A DNA stretch of 64,000 nt from Octopus vulgaris. Its lineage: Eukaryota. Below are positions 26,578 to 41,119 of this stretch, in pieces; the first letter of the stretch is position 1, and every line of letters starts with the position of its first letter. A model generated the notes under the pieces. That model was given only the letters and a program-made list of their open reading frames with translations. It searched no databases and was not told the origin of the DNA. A program made the position numbers and the translations under genes. The stretch spans positions 5,828,001-5,892,000 of the forward strand of contig OX597833.1 in the NCBI GenBank assembly GCA_951406725.2, given 5' to 3'.

Positions 26578-26779
26578 AGTTAATCCAAACAAGAAAGCAC
26601 AAAAAAACACAACAACGCGAGGACGTGGAACAAATATAGTATTATTGGACGCTCAGGAAAGAAGAAAAGGAGGGTTTAACGTTTCGAGTGGAGCTCTTCG
26701 TCGGAAACATAGGAGAAGGAAAGATCCAGAGAAGGGAAAACAGAGGAAAAAAATCGCCAACGGTACACACGAGGTCACA
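26578..26779 (-). mobile_element. HHR-1 element (about 200 bp, TA-rich flanks)
   Basis: One of four copies (also 27603, 29832, 40924). Hammerhead motif at 26674-26708. Confidence 0.85.
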
Positions 26780-26835
26780 TGTATATATATATATATATAT
26801 ATATATATATATATATATATATATATATATATATA

Positions 26836-27060
26836 ACGGGAAGCTTTATGAAAATAGACAAAAGACGAAGGCAGGTTTACGGAAATAAACAAAAGACGAA
26901 GGCAGGTGGAATACAAACAAACAATTGTATTAGTATGGCGCTCAGGAAATATAAATAAAACAAGTCTTTAACGTTTCGAGCCTACGCTCTTCAACAGAAA
27001 GATACACAGAGAGAAAAAAAAACACAGAAAGAAGGAGAGAAAAAAAAAGAAAAAAATGCG
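26836..27060 (-). mobile_element. HHR-2 element, (TA)n-inserted
   Basis: Distinct sequence but the same layout as HHR-1, sharing the cgctcaggaaa motif and a hammerhead fold. Confidence 0.7.
26965..27002 (-). ncRNA. Minimal type I hammerhead motif (A6U core variant)
   Basis: UCUUU-CUGUUGA-A-GAGC-GUAG-GCUC-GAAA-C-GUU-AAAGA. Confidence 0.72.
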
Positions 27061-27133
27061 TGTATATGTGTGTATGTGTGTATTTATATGTATGTACTGT
27101 TGAACGTCTGACTCAATGAATGTGTCGCATGAT

Positions 27134-27352
27134 AAGGCGTCAAGCTGGCAGAGTCGTTAGCACACCGGGCGAAATGCTTAGCGGTATTTCGTATGTCTTT
27201 ACGTTCTCTGAGTTCAAATTCCGCCGAGGTCGACTTTGCCTTTTATTGTTTCGGGGTCGATAAATTAAATATCAATTATGTATTGGGGTCGATCTGATCG
27301 ACTGGCCTCACCTCCCCACCAAATTTCGGGCCCTGTGCCTGGCGTAGAAAAG
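27134..27352 (+). mobile_element. SINE-B, older subfamily
   Basis: Head and core match the family; tail cgggccctgtgcc...gtagaaaaga. Confidence 0.82.
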
Positions 27353-27490
27353 AATGTGTCATACGATTGAGTGACGAGATACGCGCTTGTTTTAGTCATG
27401 TATCATTGAGTGACTGTACATGTACATATGAGTCGTTATCAAGTGACTACATGGAAACAACAACAAACAAATTGATTGACAGATCGATTG

Positions 27491-28079
27491 AAGGTTGATT
27501 GCTAGATTACTATCCAAATCAATAATTTAAATAACCTACTTTGCTATATATATATATATATATATATATATATATATATATATATACATACACATACGTA
27601 TTTGTGACCTCGTGTGTACCATTGGCGATTTTTTCCTCTGTCTTCCCTTCTCTGGATTTTTCCTTCTCCTATATTTCCGACGAAGAGCTCCACTTGAGAC
27701 GTTAAACCCTCCTTCATTCCTTCTTTCCTGAGCGTCCAATAATACTATATTTCTTCCACGTCCTCGCGTTGTTGTGTTTTTTGTGCTTTCTTGTTTGGAT
27801 TAACTATATATATATATATATATATACATATATATATATATATATAAGTACAGTAAAAATCTAGATTCAGTTGAATATGGTACTTAAGTTATAGGCACCA
27901 GAATTTGGTATGGTATTATCCCTATAAATCAAATGGGGTGATTATAATCAAAATAAGCAACAAGGATATATAAGGTAGTGTATATATATATATATATATA
28001 TATATATATATATATATATATATATATAAAATAGGTTATTTAAATTATTGATTTGGATAGCAATCTAGCAATCAACCTT
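27491..28079. repeat. 48-bp inverted repeat pair (27491-27538, 28032-28079) enclosing (TA)n tracts and nested inserts
   Basis: aaggttgattgctagattactatccaaatcaataatttaaataaccta and its reverse complement, with one mismatch. Confidence 0.88.
27603..27805 (+). mobile_element. HHR-1 element, inverted relative to the 26578 copy; ribozyme core mutated (GAAA to GAGA)
   Basis: atttccgacgaagagctccacttgagacgttaaac at 27673-27707. Confidence 0.85.
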
Positions 28080-37464: not shown

Positions 37465-37642
37465 GGAAGAGGTTCTGAAAACTTCCTGGCTTTAAGGGTG
37501 TCGCGAAAAGCCTGGTTGGAAGCCTAGGATCGCTGCATAAAGTGTGTGAATCTGAGAGAGGAGTATTTTGCATAAAATCATAATTCAATGATCCTCCTCT
37601 ATTTTCTCTTACTCAAAGCCAGGAACTTTTCAACACCCTTCG
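37465..37642 (+). mobile_element. Mariner-derived MITE (third family) with both TIRs
   Basis: ggaagaggttctgaaaacttcctggcttt / aaagccaggaactttttcaacacccttcg, TA flanks. Confidence 0.82.
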
Positions 37643-37700
37643 TAAATATATATATATATATATATATATATATATATATATATATATATATATATATATA

Positions 37701-38962
37701 CGAGGGGCGTTCAATAAGTAATGCCCCTGACCAACTTGCAGTTGTTTGATCTAGCTGAAATTTTGCATGTACACTTATTTATACCTCTATAGATTAAGTG
37801 GCGAATTACAGCTCTGAACTAATTGTGGTTTCTTATTTACAGGTGTTTGAACTGAGTCAAGTGTGAAATGGAGCCTGTTGAGTGTCGAGCAGTGATCTGG
37901 TTTTTGTATTTGAAAGGACGCACACCACGGGAGACTTTTGATGAAATGAAAGTAACTTATGGTGATGATGCCCCATCATATGACCTTGTAAAACGCTGGC
38001 ATTGTGAATTCAAACATAGTCGGAACTCTGTGGAAACAGCTCCCAGATCTAGTCGCCCCCTTCTGCCGTTGATGAGACGTCTGTCCGTCAAGTTGAGGCT
38101 GCCATTTTGGAAGGTCAATGCATAACTATTCGTCAAATAGCCCATGAGGTCAAGATTAGTATCGGGTCTGTGGAAACTATCATTCATGACCATTTGCATA
38201 TGCAAAAGGTGTCTGCCAGATGGATTCCCAGGTTGCTCACACCTTTCCAGAAGCAAGAACGCGTCGAGTGCTCGAGGATGAATTTGGAGATGTGCCAAGA
38301 AGATGAGTCAAAATTTTTCAAAAGACTGATCACACAGGATAAAACCTGGGTCCATCACTATGATCCAGAGACCAAAGCCCAGTCAATGCAGTGAAAGCAC
38401 CGTGACTCACCTCCTCCAAAGAAGGCAAGGGTGCAGCCCTCCGCTGACAAGGTTATGCTCACAGTCTTCTGGGACCAGGACGGAGTAGTGATGACAGATT
38501 TCCTGGCAAAAGGTACCACAATTACAGGAGCCTATTATGCTTCACTTTTGAGGAAATTAAGAGAAGCTATCAAAATCAAGAGGCGGGGCAAGATCAGCAA
38601 AGGCATCCTCCTCCTGCAGGACAACGCTCCGGTCCACAACTCGCGTGTCGCCAGATCAGAAGCACAGGCGTGCAGCTATGAACTTGCACCCTCTGATTTT
38701 CACCTCTTCCCAGCCATGAAGTTGATTTTGAAAGGAAAGCGTTTCCCAGATGATGCAGCCTTGATTTCTGAAGTCACGTCGTGGTTGGAGGACCAAGCTG
38801 GGGTCTTCTACAAAAACGGTCTCCAGAGCTGTATCAAACGATGGGAGGAATGCATAACTCTGGGTAGTTCCTATGTAGGAAAAGACTAATAACTGTGCCA
38901 AGTGTCGTTGCTCTACTGCTATGGGAAGTGGTTCAGGGGCATTACTTATTGAACGCCCCTCG
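37701..38962 (+). mobile_element. Near full-length mariner transposon (irritans-like), 1262 bp
   Basis: Perfect 30-bp TIRs cgaggggcgttcaataagtaatgcccctga; inserted in (TA)n. Confidence 0.96.
37868..38889 (+). pseudogene. Mariner transposase pseudogene
   Basis: HTH region MEPVECRAVIWFL, WIPRLL, ITQDKTWVHHYDPETK, VFWD, LLQDNAPVH, LAPSDFHLF. One frameshift near 38060-38110, one W-to-stop at 38392, and a deletion removing the HPPYSPD motif. Confidence 0.95.
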
Positions 38963-39174
38963 TATATATATATATAATTTACAAGATAAGGGCAGAAGAA
39001 AAATTCTAATGCCAAATATGCCGAAACAAAAAATTGTCGATAACCATTATAATTTATGCGTCTCGAAACAAACCGATAGAGGCATTTTTTGATATGCTGG
39101 CCACTGATAAAATTTTTTTCCCGAAAAAAATTTTATCCTATATTAAATATATACATATATATATATATATATAT

Positions 39175-39592
39175 AGGAGTGGTTGTGTCGTAAGTAGCTT
39201 GCTAACCAACCACATTGTTCCGGGTTCAGTCCCACTGCGTGGCATCTTGGGCAAGTGTCTTCTGCTATGGCCTCGGGCCGACCAATACCTTGCGAGTGGA
39301 TTTGGTAGACGGAAACTGAAAGAAGCCTGTCGTATATATGTATATATATATATATATATATATATGTATGTATGTGTGTGTGTTAGTGTGTCTGTGTTTG
39401 TCCCCCTAGCATTGCTTGACAACCGATGCTGGTGTGTTTACGTCCCCCTCACTTAGCGGTTCGACAAAAGAGACCGATAGAATAAGTACTGGACTTACAA
39501 AGAATAAGTCCCGGGGTCGATTTGCTCGACTAAAGGCGGTGCTCCAGCATGACCGCAGTCAAATGACTGAAACAAGTAAAAGAGTAAAAGAG
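39175..39592 (+). mobile_element. SINE-A, near full length
   Basis: Matches 2497-2918. Confidence 0.9.
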
Positions 39593-40923
39593 TATATATA
39601 CGTAATTAGGATAACGTCATTATTTTATGATTTATTAGTGGCCAGCATACTAAAATACTGTAATGGTTAATTTATATTAAAATTATAATAAGGGTGGTGA
39701 ATGATTATATATATGCCAAAGGAAAAGCAGTAACCGACTAAGGGATAAAAGTATCCGTATTTACTATCGGTATCAATTACCTGTGCTATCCCTGGGCATG
39801 GGCATGCTGTCACACTATGCTCATAAGGTACAGGTAACAACAGAATAAACAAAAGTTTATTAGGAATCAAGTTTAAATAATCAGAAAATGGAGAAAACCT
39901 TTGATCAGTAAACAAATTCGACCACGCCTGTAGATCCTTTTGTAATACAAAACATGGCATAACATTTCTATGACGTAACATTTCTTACGGCCGTTTCCGC
40001 TTCCAGTGCCAGTCAGTGCTTACGAAAGGATTTCGAAAATAATATTCGTCATCTTTATAGGACATTCGCTCTAATACAAGATGGCAAGATGATCTCACAA
40101 AATATACTACACACACACACACACACACACACACACACACACACACATACACACACACACACATACAGAGTGAATTCAAATGCGTAAAATAAAATAAACG
40201 AAGGGAAGAAGGAATAGGAAAGAATAGGTCCTCGAGAAGAGGCCAGAAGGTTCAATATATTAAAATCATACCATCTTCCAGTATGGAGCTTTGAAGTCGA
40301 TAGGCAAAAGTGTGAACTAGCAGTGGTATAGGGAAATATTTACGGGTTATTTCTTTATAAAGTGGGGATCCAGGCCGTTTGAATAGTAGTGAAGTGAAGC
40401 TAGAAATAAAATAAGACAGGGATTAATAATATGTCTAGAAAAAGAATAGCACTTATGATATCGTAAATAGGGCTAGTTAATACTTAACCACAAAACCGTA
40501 GGGATCTTATAAGGGTGTACTTACTGAAATATTGTAGAGACCACCACCTGTTGTCCGCACTGGAATTGACCAAAATCTAGCCATCTCTACAATTGGTCAA
40601 TTGTATTTGAACTAAGGGTAAACGTTAAGACCGTTACAAGGGATATGTAAATAAGGAAGAAAACGAACCAGTAAATAAAGGGTGCCGGGGTGAAGACTAT
40701 GATATAAGTGGTGCGAGGCCGCTTATGGTCTTCTGCAACTTTTCAACATAACATAAACAAGGATAAAATAAATAGTTAAATACTGTCATTCCAGCTGGTA
40801 TAATTTTTTTTATAGTTAAGGGGACACAACTAGAAGAGGTGCATACGAGTAGAATAACACACAGTAAAATTCCATATATATATATATATATATATATATA
40901 TATATATATATATATATATATAA

Positions 40924-41119
40924 AGTTAATCCAAACAAGAAGCCACAAAAAAAACCACAACAACGCGAGGACGTGGAACAAATATAGTATTATTGGACGC
41001 TCAGGAAAGAAGGGAAGAAGGAGGGTTTAACGTTTCGAGCGGAGCTCTTCGTCGGAAACATAGGAGAAGGAAAGATCCCGAGAAGGGAAGACAGAGGAAA
41101 AAAAATCGCCAACGGTACA
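40924..41119 (-). mobile_element. HHR-1 element between (TA)n tracts
   Basis: Fourth copy of the family, with the best-preserved ribozyme. Confidence 0.87.
41025..41059 (-). ncRNA. Minimal type I hammerhead ribozyme motif (U4C core variant)
   Basis: GUUU-CCGACGA-A-GAGC-UCC-GCUC-GAAA-C-GUU-AAAC: helices I and II fully paired, loopless palindromic helix III ACGU. Confidence 0.78.

Follow-up and report, generated by a model that had tools for sequence, protein, structure and literature searches.

Short (TA)n-flanked repeats of Octopus vulgaris as probable 3′ ends of a Penelope-like element with an altered hammerhead core

We analysed a 64,000-nt stretch of the Octopus vulgaris genome (assembly GCA_951406725.2, contig OX597833.1, positions 5,828,001 to 5,892,000; hereafter the window), in which an initial annotation had noted four copies of a short repeat, here called family A, each with a minimal hammerhead ribozyme motif. 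We consider it probable that these copies are stubs, that is, 3′ ends of a Neptune-type Penelope-like element (PLE) formed by internal initiation of reverse transcription on uncleaved RNA and run-off at the RNA 5′ end, and that their hammerhead, with C in place of the canonical U at core position 4 (C4 as opposed to U4), is a weak one. The basic element is itself of a known kind, and the value of the case lies in the natural series of core variants. The family A copies of the window and their motifs are listed below.

26578..26780, minus strand (RNA sense): stub copy 1, 203 nt; 94-96% identical by blastn both to copy 4 and to a long genomic copy at its 3′ end.
26674..26708, minus strand: minimal hammerhead motif of copy 1; C4 core, with a C.A mismatch that damages stem II.
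27603..27805, plus strand (RNA sense): stub copy 2, 203 nt.
27673..27707, plus strand: decayed motif of copy 2; the core has C4, GAAA has become GAGA, and both stem II and helix I contain mismatches.
29832..30088, minus strand (RNA sense): stub copy 3; 40 nt are inserted at 29902-29941.
29974..30008, minus strand: motif of copy 3; C4 core, stem II intact, a single helix I mismatch (C.A).
40924..41119, minus strand (RNA sense): stub copy 4, 196 nt, with a (TA)n run on either side.
41025..41059, minus strand: intact motif of copy 4, the sole undamaged one of the four.

The first point to note is that four related copies do lie at these positions (E 1e-60 or better in blastn). As annotated, they hold no open reading frame (ORF) and no terminal inverted repeat, the ends not being inverted, and their context is TA-rich: five of the eight ends fall within 12 nt of a (TA)4 or longer run, against 11% of random positions. 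Genome-wide, (TA)3 or more was found at the 3′ end of 66 of 70 family A copies, and the proposed targeting of (TA)n is borne out. The ends had been described as similar, which holds for the RNA 3′ end, common to the copies and fused to (TA)n or a near variant, but not for the 5′ ends, which vary yet cluster.

The intact motif consists of a 4-bp helix I, the core C3 C4 G5 A6 C7 G8 A9 followed by an extra A, a 4-bp stem II with a 3-nt loop, GAAA, an ACGU palindrome and a GUU site, the predicted cut falling between 41029 and 41028. Helix I, the extra base after A9, a stem II opened by G-C, GAAA, the palindrome and an NUH site are found together in the copy at 40924 and in 4,901 exact genomic motifs. 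The CCGACGA core is present in all four window copies, as had been reported; the full motif is not, since it is whole only at 40924 and carries mismatches at 26578, 27603 and 29832. The canonical CUGANGA box is absent from the four window copies and present in older subfamilies (1,919 U4 motifs and 305 of older type). By alignment and tree, copy 1 belongs to the C4 subfamily, and in copy 3 the C4 sits on an older-subfamily background. Rfam gave no hammerhead match on 40930-41120 and, on the whole window, microsatellite-driven microRNA matches among the 150 of 566 matches listed. A tblastn search of the window found no PLE ORF.

Some neighbouring repeats resemble these copies. Those at 41146-41290 and 29546-29720 are related, TA-flanked and 140-170 nt long with one end in common; the former holds a remnant like GAAAC-ACGU, and both are possibly stubs of a further Penelope-like family. 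Adjoining copy 3, the minus strand of 30085-30200 has a GACC..GGUC stem followed by GAAACAUC, resembling stem II of a degenerate hammerhead.

An autonomous element with reverse transcriptase (RT) and GIY-YIG endonuclease that shares the terminus, as had been predicted, was found through long copies. A 27-mer from the 5′ extension of a few copies has 121 exact matches and leads into a common CA-rich non-coding region; a 30-mer about 1 kb further upstream has 27 matches and led to copies with a GIY-YIG endonuclease and a PLE reverse transcriptase. In these longer copies the stub continues through a CA-rich untranslated region (UTR) of 1.7-2 kb into an ORF encoding the RT, a CxxC linker and, at the C-terminus, a GIY-YIG domain. 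One of them (L121) consists of a C4 pseudo-long terminal repeat (pLTR) and then a broken ORF whose pieces are 67-88% identical to the protein of a young sister lineage; in another (L122), pieces of the ORF are followed by the UTR and then by a C4 end, and an inverted copy is also present; a third (L125) is a partial tandem. The 5′ pLTR measures about 470 nt in L121 and 1,190 nt in L125. Upstream of the family A element, a further endonuclease region of Penelope-like type, only distantly related (identity about 27%), lies on the minus strand of L121 (2194-3081).

The young sister lineage was exposed by a protein search (13,362 candidates, 150 scored), from which 16 loci were fetched, chosen for long open frames. 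Nine of the 16 have an unbroken ORF of 949-950 aa (pairwise identity 98% at the median and 89% at the lowest), and in ten the ORF is flanked by two hammerheads 5.9-6.2 kb apart. The pLTR pairs are 95.3-100% identical, eight of ten at 98.7% or more. The young motif has a GUC site, and its helix I contains a U.U mismatch; it has 1,496 exact matches, and C4 is present in 96 of the 100 matches listed. A single intact young element (L313/L314 and L160) has U4 in both pLTRs, likely a reversion passed through retrotransposition. On the minus strand of L158, some 430-650 nt past the ORF stop, the CA-rich UTR contains a GC-rich block that looks self-complementary and is absent from the otherwise intact L160.

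Pfam matches to the young protein were below cut-off (RVT_1, E 0.0018; GIY-YIG, E 0.013), and 735 homologues with RT and GIY-YIG annotations were found, the best 52-58% identical. The protein P0002 is a single ORF with an RT bearing the DKG motif and, C-terminally, a GIY-YIG domain with CCHH, and in both P0001 and P0002 a CX4CX2C linker precedes the GIY-YIG motif; the element also shows partial-tandem pLTRs and microsatellite targets. By the definitions of linker motif and domain layout in PMC8557442, the predicted proteins place the parent among the Neptune-type endonuclease-containing (EN+) PLEs. The motifs lie in PLE pLTRs. The annotation was right in seeing a minimal type I hammerhead of Penelope-like origin and a piece resembling a solo pLTR. 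The stubs appear to be ends of a longer PLE, and in the C4 copies compared the short ones have no private variants relative to the long ones; they are probably not the stand-alone, non-autonomous element that had been proposed.

How the stubs arise is suggested by their 5′ ends, placed in 70 of the first 74 matches of a list selected on the 3′ end; the four left out were three short U4 copies (at -83, -77 and -75) and one longer copy. Counting from C3, 52 of the 70 start between -87 and -66, two are long and 16 shorter. The predicted cut site is overrun in 69 copies, which leaves the suggested processing by the ribozyme unsupported, and one copy begins at it. Of 54 copies that reach -66, 52 stop by -87. 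The boundary tracks a short ATG-holding motif and not length, lying at about -77 in family A and intermediate copies and at -97 in two young copies. At none of 188 sites do the 66 short C4 copies part from the 26 long ones (lowest p 0.005, with the majority base common to both); the sample is small, with just one long copy of U4 type.

In the mechanism that we propose, the endonuclease would nick (TA)n, and priming of cDNA by the protein would take place some 100 nt downstream of the cut site. Transcripts that begin within the 5′ pLTR would contain this priming site twice: use of the first would yield a cDNA of 200-215 nt terminating at the transcription start, and use of the second would yield long or full-length inserts. 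Since insertion would have no need of cleavage, variants that weaken the CUGA turn (U4C and, in family B, A6U) would be tolerated or even favoured whilst the fold is kept. We infer internal priming with run-off at the pLTR start because the 5′ ends cluster, copies span the cut site, short copies match long ones, and Penelope and PAc offer precedents. For Penelope of D. virilis, a transcription start at 371 (PMC2377424) and a hammerhead C3 at 496 (PMC4209133, Table S1) put the start about 125 nt upstream of the hammerhead. For the Poseidon element PAc of Anolis, PMC11167929 describes internal initiation of reverse transcription on uncleaved RNA, core mutants that leave insertion unaffected, and hammerhead cleavage that needs protein.

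The genome-wide counts allow the altered core to be placed in time. All are exact motif matches in the 2.8-Gb genome. The family A 33-mer with any base at position 4 has 6,857 matches (reversed-sequence controls, 0), made up of 4,901 with C, 1,919 with U and 37 with A or G. With canonical U4 in 28% of these motifs, the view of C4 as a fixed family trait has to be given up; it is a derived subfamily state. The 3′ 34-mer of family A has 5,013 exact matches, and the overlap of two match lists over the first 52.6 Mb of contig 1 (28/76) gives a copy number of about 19,000, a rough figure that assumes independence of the lists; some 97% of family A copies are short. Alignment of 186 distinct copies sets those with U4 apart in subfamilies of their own, which differ at about ten linked sites. 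At non-CpG sites, copies diverge from their group majority by 5.2% and 3.1% in two U4 groups and by 2.6% in the C4 group, and an unrooted tree of 63 sampled copies, with rough support, gives the order U4-old, U4, C4, young-like. U4 also occurs in family B and in the 305 older-type motifs with the canonical box (1 control match). Because the U4 groups are older on this ladder, and family B and the older-type motifs are U4, the sequences indicate that C4 is derived and has been inherited by the youngest lineage, while U4 marks older subfamilies. CpG decay was considered as the main source of the U4 copies and rejected, U4 being linked to about ten other sites and T occurring in only 2 of 120 copies of C4 background. 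Contigs from eight sequencing runs (four presumed RNA, four with other species labels) showed no joints or pile-ups; their silence at position 4 is uninformative, since U occupies that position in 28% of the genomic family A motifs. A contig of run X19, which bears another species label, crosses the C4 motif at low depth and shows no deviation from it.

A sister family, missed by the initial annotation, lies between copies 1 and 2.

26836..27062 (ends approximate), minus strand (RNA sense): family B stub, the 3′ end of a second Penelope-like lineage, whose protein shows about 60% identity.
26966..27001, minus strand: family B hammerhead motif; U4, with U in place of A6, and helix I closed by C-G where family A has G-C.

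The family B motif has 12,983 exact genomic matches, more than family A, and in sequence comparison its protein pieces are 59-70% identical to the other PLE lineage. U6 was found in 97 of the 100 matches listed and in all 42 collected copies. Position 7 takes all four bases (18/11/9/4), and 99 of the 100 matches listed have A or U at position 17. Estimates of the 5′ ends were too noisy to place a boundary.

Across the lineages the fold appears to have been kept. Among nine lineage representatives, which were pattern-selected, 26 of 36 motif columns are invariant compared with 27 of 124 flank columns. The covariation set comprised 23 motifs: those of the four copies in the window, together with motifs from family B, from the young lineage (one U4 copy among them) and from the older types, for which 13 of 20 loci were used. 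Pairing was found in 86% of its cells, against 47% at most for slid controls; 14 cells, in three of eight pairs and in helices I and II, show double changes, and none of 500 shuffles reaches this. These alignments support selection on the fold across lineages but do not prove it, because the motif sets are pattern-picked and related. On the 3′ side of the hammerhead (40985-41010 and equivalents), families A and B and the young lineage all keep a block AGCG, which could compete for stem II, together with a TAATAC resembling a branch point and with pyrimidine tracts. The run contigs showed no splice joint, and no spliced stub was found among seven odd copies inspected.

Some indication of whether such hammerheads cut comes from modelling and from mutants of other ribozymes. 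In the nearest-neighbour model, weak evidence for such small motifs, the predicted monomer and dimer minima are non-hammerhead folds, the dimer minimum being -23.9 kcal/mol, compared with an active dimer, as drawn, of -7.3 kcal/mol in family A and -0.9 kcal/mol in the young lineage. For the U4C change, PMC3088659 reports lower activity in vitro with viroid infectivity kept, and for A6C a rate under 0.1 per minute. Single mutants of the CUGA turn were low in activity in a full mutational scan (PMC9901934), and A6 was found essential by mutagenesis (PMC3088659, PMC9901934). Even canonical minimal PLE hammerheads are described as cutting poorly, the lone minimal motif being inactive as a monomer (PMC4209133). 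Most likely, then, the C4 hammerhead would cut weakly, and the motif may be kept for its shape.

Several observations weigh against this account of weak cleavage and internal priming. The 5′ pLTRs of full-length copies measure from 410 to over 1,800 nt. Because these exceed a run-off at -80, such copies need a template that is longer or circular, and for this cleavage could be required. Of the 18 close young copies just 2 stop at the boundary, so the pile-up of 5′ ends is mostly a trait of older subfamilies, and AT/TG microhomology, which can shape ends, occurs at many 5′ junctions. Viroids with U4C still cleave in vivo (PMC3088659). With respect to the fold, the three pairs with double changes are not above chance (228 of 500 shuffles were as high), the search patterns fix the core, the stem ends and part of helix I, and kinship inflates the shuffle test. 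Finally, it is the linker motif that separates the predicted parent from Nematis.

The long pLTRs bear directly on the idea that the C4 hammerhead still works in vivo, through dimers or the element protein, and excises a 6.2-kb unit for circularisation, with the stubs as by-products. We regard this as possible though doubtful. Variable pLTRs of more than unit length fit a circular template, the scaffold is conserved in the nine representatives to the extent given above, and in family B the freedom of position 7 and the restriction of position 17 to A or U are as catalysis would demand; there is also precedent in the protein-assisted cleavage of PAc (PMC11167929) and in the viroid U4C variant (PMC3088659). 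However, the young lineage additionally breaks helix I (U.U), the predicted minima lie far below the active dimers, and A6U in family B alters a base that mutagenesis marks as essential. A further reading, in which the copies come from an element derived from Naiads or from a non-LTR retrozyme in tandem that spreads via small circular RNAs, is highly improbable. It would account for the (TA)n targets and the type I hammerhead, and retrozymes have been proposed to be PLE derivatives (bioRxiv 10.64898/2026.07.22.740005). A Naiad affiliation is nonetheless refuted by domain order, since the partner has a C-terminal endonuclease and the DKG motif, and a hammerhead is present where Naiads are described as having no canonical one. 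The retrozyme likeness is left without support: hammerheads were dispersed monomers in the window and in the 30 best loci, and no head-to-tail arrays were found there or among the matches listed. One cluster (L324/L325) consists of four separate 3′ pieces of the young lineage, each 730 nt long with (TA)n at its end; they are spaced at about 3 kb and not joined unit to unit, and a stretch of host DNA was likely duplicated locally, as opposed to the element forming an array.

Two further explanations concern the stubs themselves. They might keep an internal promoter, be transcribed alone and be copied in trans by the element protein, in the manner of a short interspersed nuclear element, a view close to that of the initial annotation. 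Such a non-autonomous family would explain why about 97% of some 19,000 copies (a rough count) are short with a sharp 5′ boundary, a fixed 3′ end and 5′ ends that in 52 of 70 cases fall in a span of 22 nt; an internal promoter is present in Penelope (PMC2377424), non-autonomous PLE derivatives are known (PMC8557442), and the inactivity of the lone minimal motif as a monomer (PMC4209133) would spare these RNAs. We nevertheless think it unlikely, as short and long C4 copies agree at every majority base and mix in the tree, and the stub subfamilies follow the ladder of the long elements up to the young lineage. Less probable still is that the stubs are random 5′ truncations or recombination solo pLTRs, piled up by (TA)n/(TG)n microhomology, with C4 drifting neutrally in a vestigial motif. 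The microhomology at many junctions is real, most metazoan minimal hammerheads are reported as single truncated copies (PMC4209133), and the young element with U4 in both pLTRs implies that both states replicate. Yet microhomology is ample in the CA/TA-rich UTR upstream of the point where 52 of 54 copies stop, the 5′ pLTRs of full copies are too long to give 210-nt pieces by recombination, and drift is at odds with a motif far more conserved than its flanks.

Internal priming on uncleaved RNA remains the reading that we prefer. It also admits a bolder form, which we put forward only tentatively: the two most prolific PLE lineages would have separately disabled the catalytic turn (U4C in one, A6U in the other) while selection kept the rest letter for letter, as a non-cleaving RNA handle for the RT-endonuclease, and the tens of thousands of stubs would record internal priming and the transcription start.

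Elsewhere in the window, tandem arrays of a 185-bp unit lie at 11330-11846, 18358-19481, 22972-24032 and 7432-7802, the unit resembling a dispersed short repeat at 27140-27355. Frames at 38395-38889 (plus strand) and 1490-1990 (plus strand) resemble mariner and Tc1 transposase fragments in their motifs. A minus-strand frame at 33694-33900 has two C2H2 zinc-finger-like stretches and is perhaps an exon or a remnant of a long interspersed nuclear element.

Minimal hammerheads in pLTRs, single truncated copies, core covariants and the viroid U4C change are already known. In the literature search neither U4C nor A6U turned up for PLEs, nor did hammerheads for octopus PLEs or two separate core erosions in thriving PLE lineages, although a paper on PLE hammerhead dimers, reportedly by Lunse and colleagues, may contain a C4 variant. 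The main text of PMC13282606 makes no mention of ribozyme or hammerhead, and the role of hammerheads in PLEs is called unclear in PMC8557442. Here an apparently active lineage with intact ORFs bears a core change expected to weaken cleavage, and its sister lineage bears another, so that the canonical, U4C and A6U lineages of one genome form a natural series for testing cleavage against fold alone. Descriptors requiring CUGANGA would miss the majority of these motifs.

Among known systems, the closest likeness is to the minimal PLE hammerheads of PMC4209133, with which the motif shares the short helix I, the extra base after A9, G10.1-C11.1, GAAA, the CG palindrome, the GUH site, the location in pLTRs and the occurrence mostly as single truncated copies; the Neptune motif of Acropora digitifera given there has CUGACGA, a GCUC stem strand and CGUC. 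The difference is in the core, which has C4 here and U6 in family B, whereas U4 and A6 are present in every one of the 56 motifs shown in their Fig. S3, a core imposed by the descriptor. The parent resembles the Neptune EN+ PLEs described in PMC8557442 in its single ORF, with RT, CX4CX2C linker and then GIY-YIG with CCHH, and DKG, as well as in its partial-tandem pLTRs, inverted 5′ pieces and microsatellite targets, and departs from them in its long CA-rich 3′ UTR of 2-3 kb and altered hammerhead core. Poseidon PAc (PMC11167929) likewise has a hammerhead upstream of a fixed insertion end, inserts from RNA spanning the cut site and AT-rich targets, but by clade lacks the linker finger and has a hammerhead overlapping the ORF start; PAc was studied in vitro, and the present element from sequence alone. 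Naiads share the (TA)n targets and differ in their N-terminal endonuclease, DKA and lack of a canonical hammerhead according to PMC8557442, where they are said to persist only as remnants in cephalopods. Non-LTR retrozymes share the type I hammerhead and differ from this element, which shows no tandem arrays. The viroid U4C variant (Ambros and Flores 1998, as cited in PMC3088659) carries the identical substitution, compatible with replication; unlike the motif here it has tertiary stabilisation, whilst in the octopus the same state has been carried through thousands of genomic insertions.

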